Below are positions 5,368-29,406 of a stretch of DNA of 64,000 bases, piece by piece. The stretch lies in the IMG/VR virus record IMGVR_UViG_3300025534_000009. One strand, 5' to 3'. The translations under genes were made by a program, and so were the position numbers. A model generated the notes under the pieces. It made no database searches, was not told the origin of the DNA, and worked only from the letters and a program-made list of their open reading frames with translations. The DNA comes from an uncultured virus (IMG/VR IMGVR_UViG_3300025534_000009) (taxonomy: Duplodnaviria; Heunggongvirae; Uroviricota; Caudoviricetes). Position 1 is the stretch's first letter, and each line of letters starts with the position of its first letter.

Positions 5368-5592
5368 TCACACAGGGGCTATTTCATTTCCGAAGGTCAT
5401 CTGAAAGGCGACGTAGTCTTCGAGGTTGGTGAAGAGCAACCGAAGCGCCAGGCCCATATCCGGCCCAGGAACGTAGGACATCAACATCTCTCCGTTGCCG
5501 CCACCGTGCGGATGCATGTGAAACCACTCGATGTATCGCAGGAGAGACGTGTCAACCGGGATGATGACCTCGTAACCTTCAGTATTACTCAT
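5368..5592 (-). CDS. Small phage protein of the 'F.D...A..F.M.F/W' family
   Basis: C-terminus LLFTNLEDYVAFQMTFG. Confidence 0.55.
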   Translation of the reverse strand: MSNTEGYEVIIPVDTSLLRYIEWFHMHPHGGGNGEMLMSYVPGPDMGLALRLLFTNLEDYVAFQMTFGNEIAPV

Positions 5593-5628
5593 CGAAAACT
5601 CCACTGGATGACCTAATCTTGGCCGAAG

Positions 5629-5940
5629 TTAGGTCATCTGCAACACGAGCGCAACCTTCGTCGGACACCCGAAACCGTCACATTCCCTGACCGTGTGCCA
5701 CATCTCCTCCAGCTCCTCCGAAGTCGTCATTGTCGTGATGCCGGGGAGCGGTCGTTTGTGCAGATAGAGGTCGATGTAGCGCTCAATGTCCACGACCGAC
5801 ACCGTCTTGTAGGGTGTGAACTTCATGAAATGCTCCTCTCCATCCTCTCCGACCAGGATGTGGTTCCGCTTCCGGCAATCTTCGTCGGCAATCACCTCGC
5901 ACCGATAAGTGTAGCCCTTATACTTCAACAACGAACTCCA
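5629..5940 (-). CDS. Hypothetical protein (start uncertain)
   Basis: ORF with coding-like composition in its 3' part. Confidence 0.45.
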   Translation of the reverse strand, partial: WSSLLKYKGYTYRCEVIADEDCRKRNHILVGEDGEEHFMKFTPYKTVSVVDIERYIDLYLHKRPLPGITTMTTSEELEEMWHTVRECDGFGCPTKVALVLQMT

Positions 5941-6019
5941 TAAAAAACATGCGCGCAATATACCAAACGACATGAAATGTGGTCCATAAATAAAAACGCG
6001 CAAAAGTAAGGGTGTTGAA

Positions 6020-6391
6020 GTGTCCAAACCAGGCGACGTTACAAAGAAGCCCAACGTGAAGTCTGGGTACAGGCAGGAGGATATCGAAGACCTCTACCTG
6101 TGCTCAAAAGACCCGATGTATTTCATCAAGAATTTCGTTTACGTTCAGCATCCCACACAGGGGAAGCTTCCGTTCGTGCCGTATCCATTCCAGGAAGAGA
6201 TGATACAGGCCTTCCACGAGAACCGTTTTACAGTTGCTCTGACATCGAGACAGATGGGCAAGTCGGTTACCGCGAAAACGCTTATTTCACGGAATGGAGA
6301 AAAGGTAGAAATTGGTTCGCTTGTTGGTCTCTCTGTAAAAGAACGGATTGTTGATACGATTGAACGCTGGATTTTGCGTCTAAAAGCTTGA
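6020..6391 (+). CDS. terL: Terminase large subunit fragment 1: 81-aa N-extein plus 42-aa IntN1 (6263-6388)
   Basis: gp17-like C.KDP.YF.KN...HP..G...F..YPFQ and Walker A SRQMGK, then intein block-A-like SVTAKTLI. Confidence 0.9.
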   Translation: MSKPGDVTKKPNVKSGYRQEDIEDLYLCSKDPMYFIKNFVYVQHPTQGKLPFVPYPFQEEMIQAFHENRFTVALTSRQMGKSVTAKTLISRNGEKVEIGSLVGLSVKERIVDTIERWILRLKA

Positions 6392-6557
6392 TTGCAATGT
6401 TCTCTATGCGTCGATTAGACCCCGCACGCCGATACGTCAAGGGGTAGACCTTGGTCGGAAGCGTGAAACCGGTGACAGTTTGTTGTCACACAGCTCAAGT
6501 GCTGAGCGGTAGACGCTGAGGTTCGTTGTCCGGGTTGGCTGCCTAGTGTAGCGTTTC

Positions 6558-7106
6558 ATGAACGAGTTCAAAAAGGCGTGGAGGAGGCATGCGGGCACCA
6601 AGGATGAGAATGGGAGTAAGAAGGAGCCGACGGCTGTTTATCTGTTCCTTGACGTTTCCATTCCCAAAAAGGGGGGTCGCCGCACTTCAAAGCTAATCCC
6701 GCTGCCGAAGAATCTGGAGAAGTACGACTCCGAGTATCATTTTTTCTACGAAAGAATGCTTAAATTTCAGAAATCGGGCAAGGAACACTATAAGTATTGG
6801 TTCATGATGCCCAACGTCTTGCGTCGAGTGCTTGAAGTCTTTTTGGGGTTCAAGGTGCCTAGTCCGAGTAGTGTGATAACGAAACTAGAGAACCTTGCCC
6901 CAGAATTCAATTTGGACAAGGTGCAGTTGAAAGCTTTGGATCGTTTGCTCCAACTGGAGTCGCATTCAGATAACCTGGAAAAGGTTCTTATTCCATCACC
7001 ATTGACGTTTGAAGAGGCACGAGATGCGAATGCGTCCGTGCTCTATTTAATCGAGAAGGTCGATGAACGGCATGGAAAAGCGATGCGGAAACTATGCAGC
7101 AGTTAG
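6558..7106 (+). pseudogene. C-terminal fragment of an AAA_13/RloC-like ABC-ATPase protein
   Basis: FMNEFKKAW, YDSEYHFF, PNVLRRVLE.FL.FK.P and ESH motifs; in-frame TAG just upstream and no Walker A. Confidence 0.55.
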
Positions 7107-8161
7107 TTGATCAGCGATCCCTGTTCGTTCATCGATCTGATCCGTTCGGGCTCCAGAATGTCTCGCAGATGCTGACCGAGAAGGGCGCGTCCCTTCTCGA
7201 ACCGCTTCTTCCAGCCCGTCCCGCGCGCCAGCAGCTCCTCAAGGCCGTCAGCCAGACCCCAGGGATCGACCTTCAGCAGCACGGAGATGAGCTCCTCGGC
7301 CTGCATCCGGTCCTTCTGAGCCTTCGCCATGCTCTCGGCCGTGCTGGCTCGTGATACGCTCACGATGATCTTGTGGAGCGCGTAACGGATGGGCGAGGGG
7401 ACGTTGATGAGGATGCCTGGCCCCCAGAGCGCGACCGCCTGTTTCTCCTCGTAGATCAGATAGTCAAGGAAGCGTAGCGGAATGCCCTCCGTCTGGATCG
7501 CCGGGAGCGGGATCGGGTCACCCGTATCCGGGCCGCGATTGGGAACCAGGAACTCGACCCGGTACGGACCGAGGGCATATCGCGTCGCGCCGCCAGAGAG
7601 ATCGGGAATGGCCTCGAAGTGCTCGTCCACGCCCTTCAGAACGTCCAGGATCGGCACGTCGATCTGGTCCTCGACTGCAACCGAGATCGAGTTGAACTGG
7701 GCTATGTCGAGATCACCAGTTCGGACGGCGGCAGACCCCAGACGGTAGCCGAGCAGTCCCGAATAGCACTGGTAAGCGACCGTGCCGACCACCACTGCCC
7801 GCATCCTGAAAACACCAGCCTGGGAGAGGGCGTTCAGAATTCGTCCTGTCATGTTGTCGGGGCCGGGGACACCTGCACCCAGCAATGAGCGAACGATGGT
7901 GCGCCGTTGCCGCAGATCGTCCTCATGGCGCCGATGGCGCTCGATGTATGAGCGCATCTTCTCCGAGTCCGGCCCCACATACTTCTTGAAGCGTTTCCCA
8001 TCGACCTGCGGGCTCTGGTAGTACCAGTAGTCGCGATCCTTGATCCGCGTCTTGAAGAAGTTGCCTCCCTCGGGGAAGTCGCTCTTGAACTGGCTGAGCG
8101 AGGCAAGCTCGACCAGCTCCTGATAGGAGGTCTGGATCGTCAGAGGCAGCTTGGTCGCCAT
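7103..8161 (-). CDS. Nucleotidyltransferase-fold protein (GSU2403-like)
   Basis: YWYYQ...YVGPD N-terminus, VVGTVAY, RTGDLDIA, VP.P.RYALHK, K..KD..QA. Confidence 0.85.
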   Translation of the reverse strand: MATKLPLTIQTSYQELVELASLSQFKSDFPEGGNFFKTRIKDRDYWYYQSPQVDGKRFKKYVGPDSEKMRSYIERHRRHEDDLRQRRTIVRSLLGAGVPGPDNMTGRILNALSQAGVFRMRAVVVGTVAYQCYSGLLGYRLGSAAVRTGDLDIAQFNSISVAVEDQIDVPILDVLKGVDEHFEAIPDLSGGATRYALGPYRVEFLVPNRGPDTGDPIPLPAIQTEGIPLRFLDYLIYEEKQAVALWGPGILINVPSPIRYALHKIIVSVSRASTAESMAKAQKDRMQAEELISVLLKVDPWGLADGLEELLARGTGWKKRFEKGRALLGQHLRDILEPERIRSMNEQGSLIN

Positions 8162-8162
8162 C

Positions 8163-8292
8163 GGTAGTCACTCCTACGGAGTGACTACCAGTTGGAGCCA
8201 CTCCTTATGTCTGACCATAAGCGAAATGGCTGTTATGGTCAAATCCAGAATCTGACCCTAACGTTAGGGGCACCTTCAGAATCTGACCATAA
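8163..8292. promoter_or_regulatory. Perfect 12-bp hairpin over the NTase RBS plus four TCTGACC(A/C)TAA-like repeats (putative operator)
   Basis: GGTAGTCACTCC-TAC-GGAGTGACTACC at 8163-8189; repeats at 8210, 8233 (inverted), 8251 and 8282. Confidence 0.55.
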
Positions 8293-8369
8293 CTCCGGTC
8301 CGATCCATGTTCGTCACTGTCATGTGCAGGAGGGCTTCTCCCGCATCCATGTGCTACTAAATATGGCAC

Positions 8370-9191
8370 ATGATAAAACAAATTATTTCGCACGTATTAA
8401 AAGGACTGCTCTGGCTAATTGATCGAGACCATCGGGTCTCACACGAGATTGGCATGGACGATGTGAAGAAGTTTACTCACATCGTCGAAGCGGATTTCTC
8501 AAGTGACTTCGGAAGGGTCACTCGCGTCTTTAGGACGGTGCCCTATGCCGTCTGGGAACTGAAAACGGGGACGAAGACGCTTCTGGCCGCCGACAAGCAC
8601 CGTGTCGTCCGCGAGGACTTTTCCTGCGCCTGGATCGAGGACCTGAGACCCGGTGACCGCATCATCACCGACACCGGCCCGGAAGAGGTTGTGTCAGTCC
8701 GCGACCTCGGCGTCCGGACACACATGTATTGTGTCGAGGTCAACACGGAAAATCCTGAGAGCCGCTTCAACCACCTATATTACACAGACGGTATTCTTTC
8801 ACACAACACGACGTGCGCAGCCGCATACCTGCTCTGGCGGGCAATGTTCGTGGAAGACACGACGATCCTGATCACCGCCAACACCTTCGCCCAGGCGCTC
8901 GAAGTCATGGATCGTATCCGCTTCGCCTATGAGAATGTCCCGGATCATATCAGGGCAGGCGTCCGTGAATACAACAAGGGCACCATCGCATTTGATAACG
9001 GCTCCAAGATCGTAGCCCGTGCCACCTCTGCCAACTCAGGTCGCGGCCTCTCGATCTCACTCCTCTACTGCCTCGGAGGAGAGACGACGGTCACCGTAAG
9101 GGACAAGCGGACCGGCGAGGTCAAGGACGTGTCCCTGCGCGACCTATACGAGGAGCTTGAGAATGACCCTGCAACCCGCCCTTTGGTGTAG
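8370..9191 (+). CDS. terL: Terminase large subunit fragment 2: IntC1 (146 aa) + 87-aa extein + IntN2 (40 aa)
   Basis: LLAADKH, DLRPGDRI, MYCVEV, YYTDGILSHN/T; then gp17 YNKG.I.FDNGSKI.A..TS..SGRG.SISLLY; then CLGGETTV. Confidence 0.92.
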   Translation: MIKQIISHVLKGLLWLIDRDHRVSHEIGMDDVKKFTHIVEADFSSDFGRVTRVFRTVPYAVWELKTGTKTLLAADKHRVVREDFSCAWIEDLRPGDRIITDTGPEEVVSVRDLGVRTHMYCVEVNTENPESRFNHLYYTDGILSHNTTCAAAYLLWRAMFVEDTTILITANTFAQALEVMDRIRFAYENVPDHIRAGVREYNKGTIAFDNGSKIVARATSANSGRGLSISLLYCLGGETTVTVRDKRTGEVKDVSLRDLYEELENDPATRPLV

Positions 9192-9262
9192 GTCCGCCCC
9201 GAATTGACGAGAGACCACCGACCAAATATTCATGTTCGGGGAGAGAAAAATAGGGGGGCGAC

Positions 9263-9586
9263 ATGAGCGATAATGCGCTCGCGAACGCGTTGGTTCATGT
9301 CAATAAACAGAAGGAAATGGAAAAAGAAATTAGGGAGTTGCGTCTGGAGAATCATGAACTAGGCGTCGCTCTGGCGCTCGAACAGGCGGCAAATGCCGGA
9401 TACAAGGCGACAATTACGGCTTTCAGGCGTTATCACCCTGAATCTCCACTTCTGGAATACTCCGGATATCGTTTCAAGAACGGCTCTCCGAAGACCGTCG
9501 AACGTCTCATCTACGAGAACGCCTTCGATCGGTTCCTGAAAATCCACATCGGTTTCAAGAATCCAAAGGACTATCGTCAGGACTAG
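9263..9586 (+). CDS. Hypothetical protein between the halves of the second intein; paralog of 33558-33752
   Basis: G-rich RBS; shared FRR.HP.SP.L..SG.RF..G.PK motif. Confidence 0.75.
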   Translation: MSDNALANALVHVNKQKEMEKEIRELRLENHELGVALALEQAANAGYKATITAFRRYHPESPLLEYSGYRFKNGSPKTVERLIYENAFDRFLKIHIGFKNPKDYRQD

Positions 9587-9667
9587 ACGGTATTCCAGCC
9601 GTTCGAGCGATGAAATGTTCTGGCCTCGTGTGCGTGCCGATCTACGAGGAAGCTAATAAATTGCTAT

Positions 9668-11083
9668 ATGAAACAAAGCGTTGCACTAAACGATCGGTAC
9701 GAGATTCTTACTCCGAACGGCTGGGAGGACTTTCGGGGAGTGATCAGGAACGAGGTTCCCCGACCCGGAGTTGAAATCAGGACAGCGACGCGAACCATCA
9801 GGGCGACCCAGGACCACCGCTTCTTCATTGATGGGGAGGAGGTACGCGCCGCCGAACTATTTGTAGGTCAGCTGATTGACACCGTCAGTGGCAAGGAGGA
9901 GATCGTTTCCATAACGAATATATCGCTCGATGAAACGTTCGATATTATTGAAACAGCATCGCACAGTGTTTATACGTCTGGTATAGTAACACATCAATGT
10001 GACGAGCTTTCGTTCGTTAGCCCATCAATACAAAAGGACTTCTGGACATCAGTGCAACCGGTTCTTTCAACCGGTGGTAGCTGTATTGTAACGTCAACTC
10101 CGAAGTCGGACGTGGACCAGTTTGCCAAAATCTGGAAGGACGCGAACGACAAGACTGACGAGTACGGCAATCCGACTGGCTCGAAGGTCGGCAAGAACGG
10201 GTTCTATCCGTTCAAGGCGCCGTGGTGGTTGCATCCGGAGCGAGACGAGGAGTGGGCCAAGCCGTTCAGAGCGAGCCTTGGAGAGGCCCTTTTCCGGCAG
10301 GAGTTCTGCTGCGAGTTCATCACGGACGACCAGACCCTGATCAATCCGATGCTTCTTGCGAACATGAAGGCAAAGGAGCCGGAGTTCTATACGGGCACGG
10401 TCCGATGGTTCAAGGAGCCGGAGCCGAACAAGGTCTATTTGGTCGCCCTCGATCCGTCGCTTGGCACGGGAGGCGATCCGGCTGCGATCGAGGTCTTCGA
10501 ACTTCCGGGCATGACGCAGGTAGCGGAGTGGCAGCACAATCTGACGCCCACGCGCGGGCAAGTGAAGGTTCTGCTACAGATACTGCTCTTCATCGATGAC
10601 GCGCTCCGCAATCACCCGGACCAGTCTGGCGAGCCGGAAATCTATTGGACGGTAGAGAACAACACGCTCGGCGACGGAGTCCTGCAAATCATCGAAGACA
10701 CCGGAGAGGACAAGTTCCCCGGCATGTTGATCTCCGAGCGGAAGAAGAAGGGGCAGACGCGCCGCTTCCGCAAGGGACTGAACACTGATCACCGAAAGAA
10801 GCTAGCGGCGTGCGCGAAGTTCAAGTCCCTCGTGGAGACGCAGCGAATGGTCCTTAACTCCCTGACGCTGATCAATCAACTGAAGGTATTCGTCGGTACC
10901 GAGGGCGGCACGAAGTTCGCGGCCAAGCCAGGAGAGCACGATGACCTGGTCATGGCGACACTGCTTTGCGTCCGCATGCTTGATACGGTCATCGCCTGGG
11001 GCGTGAACGTCGGCAACGTATCGGAGACGATCAGCGACGAGGAGCTGATGGAAGAACAAGAGCCGATGCCCGTCATAGTGTGA
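9668..11083 (+). CDS. terL: Terminase large subunit fragment 3: IntC2 (110 aa, ends His-Gln) + 361-aa C-extein including the RNase H-like nuclease
   Basis: EILTPNGW, ATQDH, GIVTHQ/CDELSF; STP coupling motif, FRQEF.CEF, ALDPS.G.G.D, VENN, HDDLVMA. Confidence 0.93.
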   Translation: MKQSVALNDRYEILTPNGWEDFRGVIRNEVPRPGVEIRTATRTIRATQDHRFFIDGEEVRAAELFVGQLIDTVSGKEEIVSITNISLDETFDIIETASHSVYTSGIVTHQCDELSFVSPSIQKDFWTSVQPVLSTGGSCIVTSTPKSDVDQFAKIWKDANDKTDEYGNPTGSKVGKNGFYPFKAPWWLHPERDEEWAKPFRASLGEALFRQEFCCEFITDDQTLINPMLLANMKAKEPEFYTGTVRWFKEPEPNKVYLVALDPSLGTGGDPAAIEVFELPGMTQVAEWQHNLTPTRGQVKVLLQILLFIDDALRNHPDQSGEPEIYWTVENNTLGDGVLQIIEDTGEDKFPGMLISERKKKGQTRRFRKGLNTDHRKKLAACAKFKSLVETQRMVLNSLTLINQLKVFVGTEGGTKFAAKPGEHDDLVMATLLCVRMLDTVIAWGVNVGNVSETISDEELMEEQEPMPVIV

Positions 11084-11132
11084 TGGTGCGTGAGCATCGC
11101 GAAACGCCTGACACATTCTCTGGTGGAACGTG

Positions 11133-11759
11133 TCAGGCATTTCCGACGACGTTGATGGCAGGGTCTTCGTCGATCTCCACGTTCCGGATGGAGATCGTTG
11201 CCAGGATCGGGAGGAGCTTTCGGATCGTCTTCCCGTCGAGCTGGAAGAGGCGGTCAAGGGCACTGCTGTCGGGGATGATCCGCGACACGCCTTCCTGCTT
11301 GAGGAAGAAGTCCTTCGGGACACCGGGCACCCTGCGCAGCTTGCGGTTGACCTTTTCGAGAAGCTGGGTGTCGTCCTTGTAGGCGGGGTTGATCACGTAC
11401 GTCTCCGGACGGTCGGTCACGGTAACGGTCGGGATACCAGCCTGGGCAAGGGTCTCGATTTCTGACGCGGCGAGGGGACGGGTCTTTGCACGTGCGGCAA
11501 GATCGCAGGAACCGGTAGCATTCTCCTCCTGAATTCGGAAGTTGGCCGGGCGTGCCTTTGCCTTCCGACCGGCGTTGATGAACTCGATCTCGGCGGCCGA
11601 CTTGAGGTCGGCCTCGATGGCGTCATGGATCGCTTCGAGCTGCGCGATGGCCCTGCGGATTTCCGCAAGCTTCTTGAGCCCCTGCATCTCGACGTAGCGA
11701 GGCTCACACTTTCTGGACTTGCGGGCCGGTGCCGGGATGACAGGAGCGGTGTTGAACAT
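11133..11759 (-). CDS. Hypothetical protein
   Basis: 208-aa ORF with GAGG RBS and strong codon bias. Confidence 0.7.
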   Translation of the reverse strand: MFNTAPVIPAPARKSRKCEPRYVEMQGLKKLAEIRRAIAQLEAIHDAIEADLKSAAEIEFINAGRKAKARPANFRIQEENATGSCDLAARAKTRPLAASEIETLAQAGIPTVTVTDRPETYVINPAYKDDTQLLEKVNRKLRRVPGVPKDFFLKQEGVSRIIPDSSALDRLFQLDGKTIRKLLPILATISIRNVEIDEDPAINVVGNA

Positions 11760-13371: not shown

Positions 13372-14841
13372 ATGACCTATCTTTTCCTCGGGTCCGAAGA
13401 CATCGATTTCGATCGCTTTGACGGTAACGTCTTCATCGAGACTGGTCTGGGCTTCCGTCGCCCCGACTTCTGTCGGTGCAGTGTCGGCGTTGCCGGTGGA
13501 GGCGATCTTCAGAACGCGGCCGTCGCTTCCTTCGCAGCCAGTGACAGCTTCTGGATCGGGGGTCGCGTTCGCCTCGACGGGGGTGCGTCAGGAGGCTCAT
13601 GGAATACCCTTCTTGCCCTCTACTCCGGTTCGTCCCGCAAGGTCGGGCTCCAGGTCTCCGGTGATCGCAAGCTGCGGCTTGTGCGGTGGACCACGAACTC
13701 CGTAGTGCAGCCGCTCGCAACATCGGAAGTGGCCCTTCCGCTTGCACAACTGTTCAAGCTCGATACGAAGATAGATATCGCGGCCGGGAAGGTCCGTGTC
13801 TTCGTCAACCAGTCGGAGGTTCTGTCCTACAGCGACAGCTTTGCCGGTGTCGTCACCTCGCTGTCTGCGCTTCATCTCGCATGCCATTCGGATGTTGCTT
13901 CCGCGCGCACCTATTGGAGCGAGGTCATTGTGGCCGAGCGTGACACGCGCACGCTCATGCTGGCGACCATTGTTCCCACGCACACGGCGGTCAATCAGTG
14001 GGCAGTTGGCGACCACACGTCGATCAACAAGGTCGAGGCGGGAATGGAGGACGCCGACGCCATATCGACAGATCAGTCCGGTCGGACGATCTCATTCCCG
14101 GTCTCGTCGCTTCCGGGAAGCCAAAATCTGTCCATCCAGGCGGTGAAGGTGGGAGCCTACGTTGCTCGTGCCGAAACTGGCCCTCGTGCCATTGCGCTTG
14201 GCATTGAGTCTCCATCGGTTTCCCGTCAGACAGTCTATGGCAATCACCGGTACTGGCGCGTTCGCGGCTCGGGGGCGTTGTCGTTTGGCCTGAGGGACAT
14301 TGAGTTTCGCGAGACGATAGGGGGTGCGAATATCGCCAGTGGCGGTCTGGCCATCGCAAGCTCGGCCGAACCCGGTTACCCGGCATCGAATGCCTTCGAC
14401 GGGAGCGCCACGACGTACTGGACATCGGTGACGGGAGACGCGTCCGACTTTGCCTGGATCGGCTATCGGTTCCCTCAAGATGTCTCCATCAGCCAGGTTG
14501 CATTGACCTCCCACAACGATGGCACGTCCGGTCAGCAGAGCACTTCCGCCACCGTGCCGTCCTATCTCCTTGTCGAGTATTCCGACGACGGTTCGAGCTG
14601 GACGACAGCGTGGGTGGAGGAGAATGTTGCTCCGTTCCGCGCCGGAGAAACGCGAACATTCGAGACGCCGCATCTAGTCGCGGGTACGGCTGTTTATGGG
14701 CAGTCGCGTGAGGTGGGCATGGGCTGGACCAAGGTCTCTGACATCTTCGAGACCAACCCGGTAACCAGTTCCTCCTGGACGAAGGATGACGTGTCCAAGA
14801 TGCGCATCTCGTTGCAGTCCAGACCGTCTGGGGGAGCGTGA
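13372..14841 (+). CDS. Virion fibre/adhesin with concanavalin-like and discoidin (F5/8C) domains
   Basis: RYWRV, ASS.....ASNAFDG...TYW, WIGYRF, VEYSDDGSSW; TAAATA promoter upstream. Confidence 0.75.
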   Translation: MTYLFLGSEDIDFDRFDGNVFIETGLGFRRPDFCRCSVGVAGGGDLQNAAVASFAASDSFWIGGRVRLDGGASGGSWNTLLALYSGSSRKVGLQVSGDRKLRLVRWTTNSVVQPLATSEVALPLAQLFKLDTKIDIAAGKVRVFVNQSEVLSYSDSFAGVVTSLSALHLACHSDVASARTYWSEVIVAERDTRTLMLATIVPTHTAVNQWAVGDHTSINKVEAGMEDADAISTDQSGRTISFPVSSLPGSQNLSIQAVKVGAYVARAETGPRAIALGIESPSVSRQTVYGNHRYWRVRGSGALSFGLRDIEFRETIGGANIASGGLAIASSAEPGYPASNAFDGSATTYWTSVTGDASDFAWIGYRFPQDVSISQVALTSHNDGTSGQQSTSATVPSYLLVEYSDDGSSWTTAWVEENVAPFRAGETRTFETPHLVAGTAVYGQSREVGMGWTKVSDIFETNPVTSSSWTKDDVSKMRISLQSRPSGGA

Positions 14842-15947
14842 TGGCGTCCTATCGGTTCTGGCGTCTCTATTTCCCCCAGAACGGCGACGCTCAGCTCGGC
14901 CGCATCGGCCTGACGACGGTCGAGATGGCCGAGCAGATCGATGGCCCGAGCGTGTGTCGCTGGGGCATTCCCTATGCCAGCTCGGAGGAACTTAATTTCG
15001 GCGCGGCGTTTGCCTTTGACGATGATATTTCGACGGCGTGGCGGACGTATTCAAGCGGTTCGCACTGGATTGTCTATGATTTCAACGAAGATCGGGACAT
15101 CGTTGTGGTTCGTCTGAGGGCCTACTCACCTGAGGAGGCGCCGACCGAATTCCTGATCCAGGGGAGCGACAACGCCATCAACTGGGTCACGACGAACCAT
15201 TACAGTATACGTCCTGCCTCGGATAGCCTGACGACCTATTTCGCCCAACCCGGCCGGAGCGGTCCTGGTTTTCGTTTCTGGCGGGTTCGTTCGCTTGGTA
15301 CGGCCTCCGGCAGGACGACCATTGCCGATGTTGGCTTCAGGGTCGGTGGCAACGATCTTCAGGTTGTGCGACCAATCAGTTCGACCACGGTGGCAGGACG
15401 ACCAGAGAATGCCTTCGATTTAGACGCGACCAGCACCTGGTCGGGACAGGGAGCCAATGCGTGGGTTGGTGCCGAGTTTCCCGAGAACATCGACGTGCGC
15501 GAGGTTCGCATCGCGGCGCCGACCAATCCGGGAATGCTTGCTGATTTCCCGCAGGCTATAGCGATTGATGGGGCATGGGAGTATGGCACGTGGGTCAACG
15601 TCGCCGAATTGACCTATGCGCCTTTCACGGCCGGTGAGGAGCGTCTGTTCGCGATCTCCCAGATCGCCCCCTCGGTGCTGGCAAAGAAGGTGACCGGCTC
15701 GGTTGCGCTTGATGCGATCCCGGACGGATCATTGTCCGTGACTGCGGTTGGTGGCTCGGCCGTACTTGAAGAGAAGCGCTATGGCGTCCTGAAGGCACTT
15801 GGGCACGTTGTCGTCCGGGCCGGGCAGTATGGGGTGAACAAGGTCGTCGCCCATGTCGTCCTGTCCGAACGTGACTCTCCCGGCCTCTTCGTCCGCAACA
15901 CGGTGGTAAGAAACGCCATTTTGCGCGCCGTGTCATTCCGGAGCTGA
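14838..15947 (+). CDS. Virion protein with two discoidin-like domains
   Basis: Two RFWR...AFD....W...W....F units. Confidence 0.75.
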   Translation: MMASYRFWRLYFPQNGDAQLGRIGLTTVEMAEQIDGPSVCRWGIPYASSEELNFGAAFAFDDDISTAWRTYSSGSHWIVYDFNEDRDIVVVRLRAYSPEEAPTEFLIQGSDNAINWVTTNHYSIRPASDSLTTYFAQPGRSGPGFRFWRVRSLGTASGRTTIADVGFRVGGNDLQVVRPISSTTVAGRPENAFDLDATSTWSGQGANAWVGAEFPENIDVREVRIAAPTNPGMLADFPQAIAIDGAWEYGTWVNVAELTYAPFTAGEERLFAISQIAPSVLAKKVTGSVALDAIPDGSLSVTAVGGSAVLEEKRYGVLKALGHVVVRAGQYGVNKVVAHVVLSERDSPGLFVRNTVVRNAILRAVSFRS

Positions 15948-26469: not shown

Positions 26470-26555
26470 CTTGGCTCGATGGCGGTTAATTGCCAATATT
26501 TACAGGGGTTTATCACGAATTAATAGTCGAGCAACAGAATGAGGCTCGACGGGCT

Positions 26556-27038
26556 ATGGCAGTAAGATTTAGCGGGCTGCGCGATGGCGTAGTTCGAGGA
26601 ATTATTATTAGAAAAGGGGAGGTTGGTCTCCCCACCGACCCGGAAGAACCGGAAGTCCCGACGAATCCACTCGCTTGGATTACGCCCCAGGGGTCCCTTG
26701 GTGCTTATGAAGAGCGCACGAGCGTGACGATCTACCTTGAGGTCGTCGATCCATACGATCGGGTTAATTCGTTCTCGATCATTTCCGGTGGCCTTCCGGA
26801 TGGTCTGGAAATGAACCCGTACACCGGGATCATTACCGGGACGATTTCATCCGTCCCCCAGGACCACACGTTCACGTTCACCGTGCTCGTGCGCGATGAG
26901 CTCGGCGACGAACTCACAGGCACCTTCAGCATATCGGTGATCAATGTGCCGCAGGTGCAGTGGATCACTCCTGCCGGTCTTATCGGGGAGGTCGGTCTTG
27001 GGTCGGATTTTGAAGCTCAACTTGTTGCGGAGGCCTAA
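26556..27038 (+). CDS. Putative-Ig (He_PIG-like) fibre protein 1: one full Ig domain plus the first strands of a second
   Basis: WITP.G.LG...SGGLP.GL....TG.I.GT...FTFTV...D...TFSI; ends QWITPAGLIG...QLVAEA. Confidence 0.8.
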   Translation: MAVRFSGLRDGVVRGIIIRKGEVGLPTDPEEPEVPTNPLAWITPQGSLGAYEERTSVTIYLEVVDPYDRVNSFSIISGGLPDGLEMNPYTGIITGTISSVPQDHTFTFTVLVRDELGDELTGTFSISVINVPQVQWITPAGLIGEVGLGSDFEAQLVAEA

Positions 27039-28363
27039 TGTCGATCACGTATCAAATGGTATACGGCGGTCTCCCTTCGGGCATCGATCTCGATCCGAAA
27101 GGGCTCGTGCATGGGACGGCTCTCTATGACGCGATTCATGCCCCGATCTGGGAAACGCCGCCTGGGGAACTCGCTGTCGCCGACGAGTTTGCTGAGCTGG
27201 AGCTTCCTCCGCTGGTAGCCCGCAGCCAGCCTGGGCGCCAGCTTGTCAGGTACAGCATTGTCAAGGCTCACAAGGGCCACACGGGCCTTCCCTGGGGCCT
27301 GAAACTCGATCCCAAGACGGGTGTCATATCCGGCTACATCGCCGAGCTTCTCGACGAGCTGGCGAACCCGCTTCCTCCATCGGAGATTCCGATCTGGAAT
27401 ACACCCAAGGGGCTCCTCGGCACCTGGGGTGAGTTCGAGGAGGTGGAGATTGAGCTGAGCGCGACGCCGCAGCTCGGTGAGCGCATCGTGCGCTGGTTCA
27501 TCGTGAAGGGTGCCCTTCCATGGGGGCTGACCATCGACACCAAGACAGGCGTCATTTCCGGAACCACGGCAGAGCTGGTCCATCCGATCTCCTACGTTCC
27601 GGAGGAGTTCTTCCCAAAGCCTGTCTGGAAGACCCCAACCGGCAGCCTCGGCATCTACAACGAGTTCCAGACGATCTCGCTTCAGCTCGACATCCAACCG
27701 CGTCTCGGCAGCGCGATGAAGAGTTTCGTCATCACCGAGGGCTTCCTGCCGTGGGGGCTCGTCCTCGATCGTGCCACCGGCGTGATCAGCGGCACCGCAG
27801 CCGAGCTGAAAACGCCGTTCGAGCCGGTCATGGAGAGCCCGATGCCTCGCCCGACCTGGAACACCCAAAAGGGCTGCATCGGTATCTACCGCGAGCAGGA
27901 TGAGATCGACGTGCAGGTGAGCGCCACGCCGCACCTCGGGACGACCCTGACCTACATGGTCATCTCCGGTGGTCTTCCGTGGGGATGCACGATGGATCGC
28001 AACACCGGCCGGATCACCGGCGTGGCGGCCGAGATCAAAATCCCGGTCGAGCCGGAATTTTACGAGCTTGGTGGACCGACATGGCTCACGCCCTCCGGGA
28101 AGATCGCGACCCTGTCGGCTGGTCAAACTGTTGACTTCTCGTTCGACGTGAAGGGAGAGAACGGTCGTACCATCAAGTCGTTCTACATGAACTTCCAGCC
28201 AGGCGGCGGTCTGCCGTGGGGCGTAGTGTTCTCGCCGTCGGAAGGGAAGTTGGCTGGCACGGTTAAGACCAATGCCAAACCAGGTGTCTATAATTTCGTC
28301 GTAGTGGCGGTCGATAGCGCCGATCGCGAAGCAGCTAGGGATTTCAGCATTGAAATTGTTTAA
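27038..28363 (+). CDS. Putative-Ig repeat scaffold protein: one partial, four truncated and one complete repeat
   Basis: Repeated P.W.TP.G...LPWG...D..TG.ISG...E units; TAATG overlap with previous gene. Confidence 0.85.
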   Translation: MSITYQMVYGGLPSGIDLDPKGLVHGTALYDAIHAPIWETPPGELAVADEFAELELPPLVARSQPGRQLVRYSIVKAHKGHTGLPWGLKLDPKTGVISGYIAELLDELANPLPPSEIPIWNTPKGLLGTWGEFEEVEIELSATPQLGERIVRWFIVKGALPWGLTIDTKTGVISGTTAELVHPISYVPEEFFPKPVWKTPTGSLGIYNEFQTISLQLDIQPRLGSAMKSFVITEGFLPWGLVLDRATGVISGTAAELKTPFEPVMESPMPRPTWNTQKGCIGIYREQDEIDVQVSATPHLGTTLTYMVISGGLPWGCTMDRNTGRITGVAAEIKIPVEPEFYELGGPTWLTPSGKIATLSAGQTVDFSFDVKGENGRTIKSFYMNFQPGGGLPWGVVFSPSEGKLAGTVKTNAKPGVYNFVVVAVDSADREAARDFSIEIV

Positions 28364-28371
28364 GGAGTAAC

Positions 28372-29406
28372 ATGACTGTTTTCAATTTCACAGTTCGCGC
28401 TACTGATGACCAGGGCGCTTTTGCGGATCGCGAATTTTCGATCAAGATTCGTAATACGATCGTTGACCGCTACATGATGGTCAACGGCACGGATGCGTAC
28501 ACCTCTCCCGATGGGACCAACTGGACGAAGCGAGTCACTTCGGGTGGCTCCAGTGTGACGTACGGTGCCGGAAAGTGGCTCGTCGTGAAGAGCGCTTCCC
28601 AGTACCTCCTGTCGGTGGACGGCATCAACTTCACACCGCATACGTTCCCGCCCAGCTCGGTTGTCCCAGCCGTCCAGTATGTCAACGGTCGGTTCGTCTA
28701 TGCGGCGCGATACGTCAACGAACCTTATCGCATGCACTACTCCTACGACGGCATCAACTGGACCGTCACGGAAGGGGCGATGGCGCTCAGCACCGAGTAC
28801 CAGCCTACTTCGTTCATCTATGTCGATGGTCGATGGATCGCTGCGGCGAACGGTTCCTACAACTACTGTGCCAAGTATAGTGACGATGACGGCGCCACGT
28901 GGCACCCGATCTACACGGGTTATACCTTCGCTTGCTCTGGTATCGCCTATTATAATGGCCTCTATATCGCCATCGACAACTCAGCAAAGGGCAGCGCCGC
29001 CCGTGTTCTGACAAGCAACGATACCGTCGTCTGGACGCCTCGTTCCCTGCCGCCCAGCGCCATCCCGAACTACTACGGAGCGTCTGAAATCCTCTACGGC
29101 AACGGCCGTCTGGTGATGCCAATCTATAAGACGGCATCTAGCGGCACCAATGGCGTCTTTTGGGTTGTCACGAGCGTGGACGGCATCAATTGGGAGGTGA
29201 AGACCTATCCACCGTTCGTCTCAAACGGCAATGCGGTTCATGCCAAGGTCTCCAGCACCTATCACAATGGCCTGTTCATGCTGGTCTGCACTCACAATGC
29301 CGGTGGTGCAGGTGGCATCCGCGTGTCGGAAGACGGCGTGACCTGGGAGACTGTGGCGCCGTCGCTTGGTGTCATGAACGGCATTGCAGGTCTCAGCTAC
29401 GGCTAA
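28372..29406 (+). CDS. Asp-box (BNR) beta-propeller protein with an N-terminal Ig beta-hairpin
   Basis: Repeated S.DG.NW Asp-boxes; N-terminus VFNFTVRATDDQGAFADREFSIKI; AAGGAG RBS. Confidence 0.85.
   Translation: MTVFNFTVRATDDQGAFADREFSIKIRNTIVDRYMMVNGTDAYTSPDGTNWTKRVTSGGSSVTYGAGKWLVVKSASQYLLSVDGINFTPHTFPPSSVVPAVQYVNGRFVYAARYVNEPYRMHYSYDGINWTVTEGAMALSTEYQPTSFIYVDGRWIAAANGSYNYCAKYSDDDGATWHPIYTGYTFACSGIAYYNGLYIAIDNSAKGSAARVLTSNDTVVWTPRSLPPSAIPNYYGASEILYGNGRLVMPIYKTASSGTNGVFWVVTSVDGINWEVKTYPPFVSNGNAVHAKVSSTYHNGLFMLVCTHNAGGAGGIRVSEDGVTWETVAPSLGVMNGIAGLSYG

Follow-up and report, generated by a model that had tools for sequence, protein, structure and literature searches.

A phage large terminase encoded in three pieces and predicted to be rebuilt by two atypically split inteins

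How is a packaging motor obtained when the gene for the large terminase subunit (TerL) of a phage occurs in three pieces, broken once inside Walker A (GK/T; a slash marks a break or junction throughout) and once inside Walker B (hhhh/DE)? This question is raised by a DNA stretch of 64,000 nucleotides (nt) from an uncultured member of the Caudoviricetes (IMG/VR record IMGVR_UViG_3300025534_000009), referred to below, at its full length, as the window. Three open reading frames (ORFs) of the window, F1, F2 and F3, each hold one segment of TerL joined to one or two candidate intein halves. The answer we favor, with a probability of roughly 85%, is that the only large terminase of this phage is made as three polypeptides which are rebuilt by two atypically split inteins into a gp17-type packaging ATPase-nuclease of 529 amino acids (aa). 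Inteins of this class consist of a short N-terminal half (IntN, 25–37 aa) and a C-terminal half (IntC) of more than 100 aa, according to a review (PMC11766414); in the first case described, found in a terminase, a C part of 122 aa contains every motif except N1 (Dassa et al., 2009; PMC2677866).

The assignment of the three ORFs to TerL relies on profile matches and on collinearity with intact proteins. All of them match large-terminase families of the PHROGs collection, namely phrog_36964 (E 3.7e-14, 1.3e-27 and, for F3, 1.8e-72) and, among the same ORFs, phrog_5989 (E 2.8e-16 and 3.8e-33). When placed on the intact TerL of Pseudomonas phage PA5oct (531 aa) the pieces lie in order and their extein parts do not overlap: F1 residues 7–89 align with residues 16–101, F2 residues 133–234 with 77–181, and F3 residues 111–470 with 181–530, the latter at 46% identity. 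The third extein is 54% identical to TerL of phage Atu_ph07, and the second matches T4 gp17 ATPase structures with E 1.4e-11 (phmmer of F2 against PDB); the Pfam model Terminase_6N also recognizes it, with E 4e-4, below the family cut-off. Alignment with the PA5oct and Atu_ph07 proteins indicates that removal of the inteins restores, with neither gap nor overlap, Walker A as ...RQMGK/TT (GK[ST]) and Walker B together with the catalytic Glu as ...SLLY/CDE. The resulting product (81+87+361 = 529 aa) compares with 531 and 525 aa for the intact jumbo-phage TerLs of PA5oct and RsoM2USA. An earlier reading of the letters alone (the sequence-only reading) had proposed these ORF positions, piece boundaries and lengths (81/42, 146/87/40, and 110/361 aa), which are exact in the ORF list, as well as the restoration of both Walker motifs and the 529-aa sum, which agree with the intact TerLs. 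Judged by these comparisons, the three-piece layout is far beyond chance, and its boundaries recur in Atu_ph07, Salicola phage SCTP-2 and many metagenome proteins. Coordinates are collected in Table 1.

Table 1. Features of the three-piece TerL locus and of its two gaps (positions in the window).
Feature	Position	Strand	Description
Late-promoter-like ATAAATA	5986..5992	+	28 nt upstream of the F1 start codon
F1	6020-6391	+	123 aa, GTG start (ORF list)
TerL extein 1	6020..6262	+	F1 residues 1-81; ends in Walker A ...SRQMGK; PHROG terminase matches
IntN1	6263..6391	+	42 aa, Ser1, block A only, plus stop codon; tail begins SVTAKTLI
182-aa ORF, gap 1	6558..7106	+	3' remnant of AAA_13 / PDC-S06-type ATPase gene
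NTP_transf_8 nucleotidyltransferase gene, gap 1	7103..8161	-	352 aa; Pfam PF12281, E 3.5e-56
Late-promoter-like CTAAATA	8357..8363	+	7 nt upstream of the F2 start codon; spacing atypically short
F2	8370-9191	+	273 aa (ORF list)
IntC1	8370..8807	+	146 aa; N-terminal helix, then block B (AADKH), F, G (GILSHN)
TerL extein 2	8808..9068	+	87 aa; Thr+1 of Walker A (TTCAAAY...) to Walker B ...SISLLY
IntN2	9069..9191	+	40 aa, Cys1, block A only, plus stop codon; begins CLGGETTV
107-aa ORF, gap 2	9263..9586	+	no match in Pfam, PHROGs, NCBIfam or PADLOC
F3	9668-11083	+	471 aa (ORF list)
IntC2	9668..9997	+	110 aa; block B ATQDH; block G GIVTHQ, C-terminal Gln
TerL extein 3	9998..11083	+	361 aa plus stop codon; Cys+1-Asp-Glu of Walker B (CDELSF...) to nuclease domain

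The segments adjoining the exteins have the anatomy of two Hint domains, each broken just after block A. The four junctions read SRQMGK/SVTAKTLI, GILSHN/TTCAAAY, SISLLY/CLGGETTV, and GIVTHQ/CDELSF, and block B is found at F2 residues 74–77 in IntC1 and at about F3 residues 46–50 in IntC2. A profile of IntC1 made from 30 homologous middle pieces matches VidaL (E 1.8e-11), the gp41-1 intein (E 4.6e-8), the Spl DnaX mini-intein (E 3.4e-6), and CatC (E 6.6e-5), and the intein C-terminal model of NCBIfam (TIGR01443) scores 18.1 bits over F2 residues 120–147 against a cut-off of 15.6. The AlphaFold2 model of F2 has a mean predicted local distance difference test score (pLDDT) of 77, with values of 74–95 over most of the beta-rich residues 35–125; in Foldseek it retrieves T4 gp17 first, through the extein part, followed by VidaL (E 1.2e-5) and more than 30 intein/Hint entries. 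IntC2 matches CatC (6dsl_B, E 1.1e-3) and VidaL (E 1.5e-3) in phmmer and shares 40% identity with the homologous N-terminal part of SCTP-2 gene 224. Taken by themselves, IntN1 and IntN2 lack the length needed for scoring (CatN against the IntN2 region gives E 0.15); homologues of IntN1 form the tails of Atu_ph07 gene ASV44708 and SCTP-2 gene 534, and the F1 model places a beta-hairpin at residues 88–97 and a helix at 101–122, with a pLDDT of only 51–74 there. Homology also links the two IntC halves (30% identity over 103 aa, E 5e-8). The claim of two different atypically split inteins made by the sequence-only reading therefore stands as regards the two Hint domains and their breakpoints, but the inteins are paralogues and not unrelated elements; the likeness of IntC2 to the known atypically split TerL inteins, which that reading had also pointed out, reappears in the CatC and VidaL matches. 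By sequence comparison both inteins are Hint domains split right after block A, paralogous and kin of VidaL and Cat.

Conservation of the residues involved in splicing was examined in 30 middle pieces (42–70% identical to F2), 9 N-pieces and 16 C-pieces. A74, D75, and H77 of block B, S144, H145, and N146 of block G, Thr147 at the +1 position and C234, which is residue 1 of intein 2, are invariant in 30/30 middle pieces, and R77, Q78, G80, and K81 in 9/9 N-pieces. Intein position 1 of the N-pieces is occupied by Cys (7/9) or Ser (2/9), the window having Ser82 of F1. The block B Thr and His and the Cys+1-Asp-Glu sequence are kept in 16/16 C-pieces, half of which end intein 2 in Gln (as His-Gln, like the window) and the other eight in Asn. 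Block B of intein 2 (A-T-Q-D-H) fits T-x-x-H. The features of class 1 inteins that are present include a position-1 nucleophile (Ser82, Cys234), a penultimate His, a terminal Asn or Gln, and Thr or Cys at +1.

These elements suggest a mechanism in which the polypeptides N-extein-IntN1, IntC1-middle extein-IntN2 and IntC2-C-extein would be translated separately, after which each short IntN, carrying block A, would dock in a large and nearly complete IntC and complete the Hint fold. Intein 1 would act through Ser1, the block B His, the terminal His-Asn, and Thr+1 to ligate ...RQMGK to TT..., rebuilding Walker A, and intein 2 through Cys1, the T..H of block B, the terminal His-Gln and Cys+1 to ligate ...SLLY to CDE..., rebuilding Walker B. 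We infer from the sequences the splicing itself, its efficiency and the choice by each IntN of its own IntC.

The window phage is a T4-superfamily jumbo phage; the window encodes gp32-like, UvsX/RecA-like, gp41-like, primase, RNA ligase and SAM lyase proteins, and the closest TerLs are those of Atu_ph07, Sinorhizobium phage Phosso, SCTP-2, and PA5oct. In Atu_ph07 (MF403008) two adjacent genes of 123 and 602 aa (ASV44708 and ASV44707) carry the intein 1 split only, the protein being uninterrupted through Walker B, and IntC1 with its extein is 68% identical to the window. SCTP-2 (MF360958) has three genes annotated as "terminase large subunit," 534 (130 aa, at ~429 kb), 267 (297 aa, ~256 kb), and 224 (694 aa, ~216 kb), that is, pieces ~40 and 170 kb apart, which align with F1, F2, and F3, respectively, through both intein junctions and at the same positions. 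Gene 224 (L001:6001-8085) contains in addition a contiguous intein (CLAPGT...GILGSN/T) within the motif ...PT(L/I)S/TGG. The IntN2 of SCTP-2, of 95 aa, seemingly has extra sequence after block A. Klebsiella phage Magnus and similar phages have intein 1 in contiguous form at the Walker A position (site a), annotated in the record as an intein. TerLs without any split (PA5oct, RsoM2USA) and with a single one (Atu_ph07), which the sequence-only reading had suggested looking for among relatives, do exist.

The arrangement is no singleton, since it is common to the cultured phage SCTP-2 and to roughly 90 protein clusters among the best 120 F2 relatives. Protein relatives of F2 number 220 at E<=1e-5, and the builds of the best 120 were sorted. 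The tail pattern CL.G[ED]T... identifies 88 of them as IntC1-extein-IntN2 pieces, to which three were added by eye (P0039, P0081, P0108); 25 and P0069 run through Walker B, about 24 of them ending in an IntN at a third site (...QEF./C...), one has a contiguous intein near the Walker B position (site b), and two are cut by contig ends. Some F2 relatives sit on contigs of 250, 335, and 572 kb. The relatives that combine site a with the third site (site c) instead of b (about 24) include P0018, P0022, P0029-P0031, and P0033-P0034. The sequence-only reading was correct in describing this later E/CEF site as uninterrupted in the window, and it is exactly there that relatives carry a third split intein; the site of the AceL-TerL/GOS-TerL type, which we take to be the same later ...EF/CEF position, is thus intact in the window and split in about 24 relatives.

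Loci from IMG/VR extend the series. Only site a is split in L007/L008 (70% identical, on a 457-kb contig), L009, L031, and L038; L033 combines a split at a with a contiguous intein at b that joins IntN2-like and IntC2-like parts; a and b are split in L035 and L039, b alone in L037 and L043, and b and c in L047. All three sites are split in L036, a 12.3-kb contig in which four consecutive TerL ORFs of 149, 250, 241, and 353 aa (L036:2298-5671) are separated by three split inteins, at Walker A, at Walker B and at ...REH./C.... Close F2 relatives (68–70% identity) differ in the second split, having a and b, a and c, or only a (L008), and therefore the second split appears to be gained or lost quickly. 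The window arrangement is one state of a dynamic system in which nearly all combinations of sites a, b, and c are realized. At L035:8686-13362, on a 250-kb contig, two IntC1-extein copies lie in tandem, the first (300 aa) running through Walker B before it breaks off and the second (249 aa) having the usual middle-piece build, with an endonuclease gene and then the C-piece downstream; the first looks like a displaced older copy left by the insertion of an element.

Several observations weigh against a spliced terminase. The splicing of these inteins is a prediction from sequence. Block B of intein 1 reads A-A-D-K-H, Ala74 standing in place of the consensus Thr in 30/30 middle pieces, and intein 2 terminates in Gln and not in Asn. 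Gln termini are a known minority among inteins, and in studied cases inteins ending in this residue splice more slowly. Pfam gives weak results on single sequences (Intein_splicing, E 0.02, F3 only) and finds nothing in the intein part of F1, and phmmer of the single F2 sequence against PDB returned T4 gp17 only, with no intein match for IntC1; the matches of Pfam alone to both intein and terminase families were sub-threshold, and it took profiles and PHROGs to identify the parts. Cross-pairing is a real risk, the two inteins being paralogous and the short-type IntN1 of relatives resembling IntN2. The search for TerL in the window phage spans the 64 kb of the window, and a second, intact terL could lie beyond it.

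This last point is what a reading of the pieces as decaying remnants, with a separate intact terL elsewhere doing the work, has in its favor. We consider it very improbable: none of the three ORFs is disrupted, the catalytic and Walker residues that they encode are intact and conserved, Pfam hits elsewhere in the 64-kb window include no other terminase family, and each of the three TerL queries matched a single place, with no second TerL match, when run against the complete SCTP-2 and Atu_ph07 genomes. Somewhat more credible, but still improbable, is a non-covalent assembly in which the intein halves would serve as tight dimerization modules and no peptide bond would be formed. Atypical IntN and IntC bind by fold completion, so that association alone could hold the ATPase together, and the deviations of intein 1 (block B Ala for Thr) and intein 2 (Gln terminus) also speak for it. 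Breaks in Walker A and Walker B would, however, leave a Hint domain of ~190 or ~150 aa wedged in the ATP site, and the residues needed for chemistry only (Cys or Ser at position 1, the block B His, the terminal His-Asn or His-Gln/Asn, and Thr or Cys at +1) are invariant across diverged relatives; this assembly is disfavored because binding alone would not select for such residues.

An interruption at the RNA level (a group I or II intron, RNA splicing of some other kind, or bypass) or an assembly artifact would also account for a gene in pieces, and self-splicing introns are found in essential genes of T4-like and jumbo phages (PMC7824862). Nevertheless, both are barely credible here. No Rfam family was found at E<=1 and no intron-like RNA in positions 5500–11500 (a search for tRNA genes made alongside found none either), one of the genes in gap 1 is read from the other strand, start and stop codons are present for every piece, and each intein half continues the reading frame of its extein. 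Contigs of three metatranscriptomic libraries (three runs), which indicate presence only and can be read for neither absence nor expression level, patchily cover the three pieces as well as the gap genes, each in part, and none joins across a gap. As for the DNA itself, the stretch is present in runs of 15 studies (bioreactor, compost, and manure metagenomes), a comparison from which three runs that are possibly the source of the window were set aside, and a 39-kb contig from an independent compost study of 2025 has the same layout, bridging F1 through most of F3 (positions 5800–10489, ~99.5% identity, 23 substitutions and an indel at 6557).

If the terminase is indeed spliced, the two paralogous inteins would have to be kept apart, and intein 1 shows a variation that may bear on this. 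It occurs in long and short forms that co-vary between its halves. In the long form (window, L007/L008, L009, L031, L032, and Atu_ph07) IntN1 ends in an amphipathic segment and IntC1 starts with ~30 extra residues; in the short form (seven loci and SCTP-2, whose intein 1 has Cys1) neither extension is present. AlphaFold2 predicts both extensions to be helical (F1 residues 101–122, pLDDT 53–74; F2 residues 2–17, pLDDT 76–87). Short-form IntN1 and IntN2 share about half of their residues, as counted by eye. Together the two extensions may act as a clasp holding the two look-alike inteins apart. A broader scenario, which we put forward tentatively and regard as rather doubtful, is that phages of the Atu_ph07/SCTP-2 clade evolved mutually selective paralogous split inteins (three fragments, and four in at least one contig), that intein 1, in the lineage of the window, gained a co-evolved helix clasp (the C-terminal helix of IntN1 with the N-terminal helix of IntC1) against intein 2, and that the gaps became landing sites for strain-variable cargo, protected because the flanking pieces of an essential gene cannot be lost.

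How the gene came to be broken is suggested by the gaps of the relatives. In the fractured genes described by Dassa, London, Stoddard, Schueler-Furman, and Pietrokovski (2009; PMC2677866) an essential phage gene is likewise broken by a split intein, and their hallmark, a free-standing endonuclease gene between the halves, is found in L008, L031, L032, L035, L039, L043, L047, and as SCTP-2 gp225, but not in the window. At site a the gap of relatives holds an endonuclease family of the Vsr-like/DUF559/MTES_1575 type (L008, L031, L032, L039), two members of which (L032 and L039) also match the Ros/MucR zinc finger. A second endonuclease family occupies the gap at site b (L032, L035, L043, L047, and a remnant in L037) and includes SCTP-2 gp225, encoded by gene 225 (L001:4892-5917) just upstream of gene 224. 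In L039 an endonuclease gene separates the N-piece from the middle piece, and between the latter and the C-piece lies a zinc-ribbon ORF that weakly resembles the site-a endonucleases. Both splits of the window would accordingly go back to fractured-gene events with a homing-endonuclease gene between the halves, after which the window phage would have lost both endonuclease genes and gained unrelated cargo in gap 1. The window would represent a later, endonuclease-lost stage of the model set out in the 2009 paper (PMC2677866), differing in that one gene has two breaks and gap 1 contains unrelated cargo.

None of the gap ORFs of the window is similar to the endonuclease families of the relatives or has a nuclease domain match in Pfam, NCBIfam or PADLOC. 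That they are decayed versions of these endonucleases was considered and rejected (BLASTP gave nothing below E 0.28), as was a decayed endonuclease elsewhere in the gaps, for which the best six-frame match spans 17 residues with E 0.03. The 182-aa ORF of gap 1 (6392-8369) covers only the last ~130–170 positions of the AAA_13 and PDC-S06 profiles (713–790 positions). It is 99% identical over its whole length to the 765-aa protein P0137, and the next relatives, at ~50% identity, are from Alphaproteobacteria, some sources naming them "wobble nucleotide-excising tRNase." An independent contig, X13, has ~1.8 kb of additional sequence exactly at position 6557; together with the full-length P0137 this leads to the view that the 182-aa ORF is a 5'-deleted remnant of strain-variable cargo. 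The NTP_transf_8 gene is covered by contigs of the three metatranscriptomic libraries. The 107-aa ORF of gap 2 has no match in Pfam, PHROGs, NCBIfam or PADLOC and no similarity to the site-b endonuclease family of the relatives.

Among known systems, AceL-TerL, GOS-TerL, Cat (PDB 6DSL), and VidaL (PDB 6VGV) are also split inteins that occur naturally in phage TerL, with the break directly behind block A; both inteins of the window are homologous in sequence to the Cat/VidaL type, and IntC1 has the same fold as VidaL. The known atypical TerL inteins have been described as one split per gene, whereas the window has two paralogous ones, at Walker A and Walker B, and it further differs from them in the Ser1/Thr+1 pair of intein 1, which lacks a cysteine nucleophile, and in the Gln terminus of intein 2. 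SCTP-2 shares with the window the TerL clade, the sites and the three-piece build, but its pieces are dispersed, it keeps gp225 and it has the extra contiguous intein; Atu_ph07 shares the clade and the same intein 1 at the same site, without intein 2. In the records of SCTP-2 and Atu_ph07 and the available parts of the related papers these genes are nowhere called split inteins. The word "intein" occurs zero times in the available text of the Atu_ph07 paper (PMC6102473), the corresponding text on phage AP-J-162 (PMC11242549) lists "three terminases (gp002, gp005, gp648)" without comment, and that on MIJ3 gives PolB as the sole gene with a split intein. Literature searches turned up no account of a phage gene, terminase or other, interrupted by two split inteins, a provisional result as the primary papers on atypical inteins were not covered. 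The presence of several paralogous inteins of the atypically split kind in a single essential gene is widespread and apparently undescribed.

Split inteins are the main tool for scarless joining of proteins, and the joining of three fragments needs pairs that do not cross-react; the atypical ones are valued as their IntN of 25–40 aa can be synthesized. If the proposed assembly is true, a viable phage that relies on two such inteins would provide a natural, selection-tested orthogonal pair, one member of which has no cysteine nucleophile, and about 90 diverged natural variants (among the best 120 of 220 F2 relatives) could be mined. It would also mean that selfish elements fragment an essential gene into up to four pieces, and that the fragmentation persists after the causative endonuclease genes are gone.

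Separate synthesis of the pieces would require expression signals of their own. Scans for sigma-70 promoters and for terminators stayed at the level of shuffled sequence (3 vs. 3.0 and 5 vs. 5.8, respectively). By contrast, the motif HTAAATA occurs 24 times in the window vs. 5.0 expected (five-fold), a count reached in 0/100 shuffles; 12 of the 24 copies precede a same-strand ORF start by no more than 100 nt, eight of these by 25–36 nt. From this distribution HTAAATA is probably the T4-type late promoter core of the window phage, and F1 and F2 at least probably have late promoters of their own (Table 1) and would be transcribed separately at late times. Between the NTP_transf_8 gene and F2 (~8205–8300) three copies of a TCTGACC(A/C)TAAC-like motif and an inverted repeat, GACCATAA...TTATGGTC, were noted by eye; these repeats could be an operator for the divergent genes.

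Other features of the window are located away from the terminase pieces. A 154-aa ORF at 1673-2137, preceded by a late-promoter-like motif at 1640, has a TnsA-like endonuclease N-terminal domain (E 1.3e-18) and is possibly a free-standing gene for a nuclease. In two places (13372-15947 and 26490-29406) runs of neighboring ORFs encode domains of the carbohydrate-binding or adhesion type (F5/8 type C twice, then He_PIG Ig-like twice and BNR repeats), and their products are probably tail fiber or host-recognition proteins.

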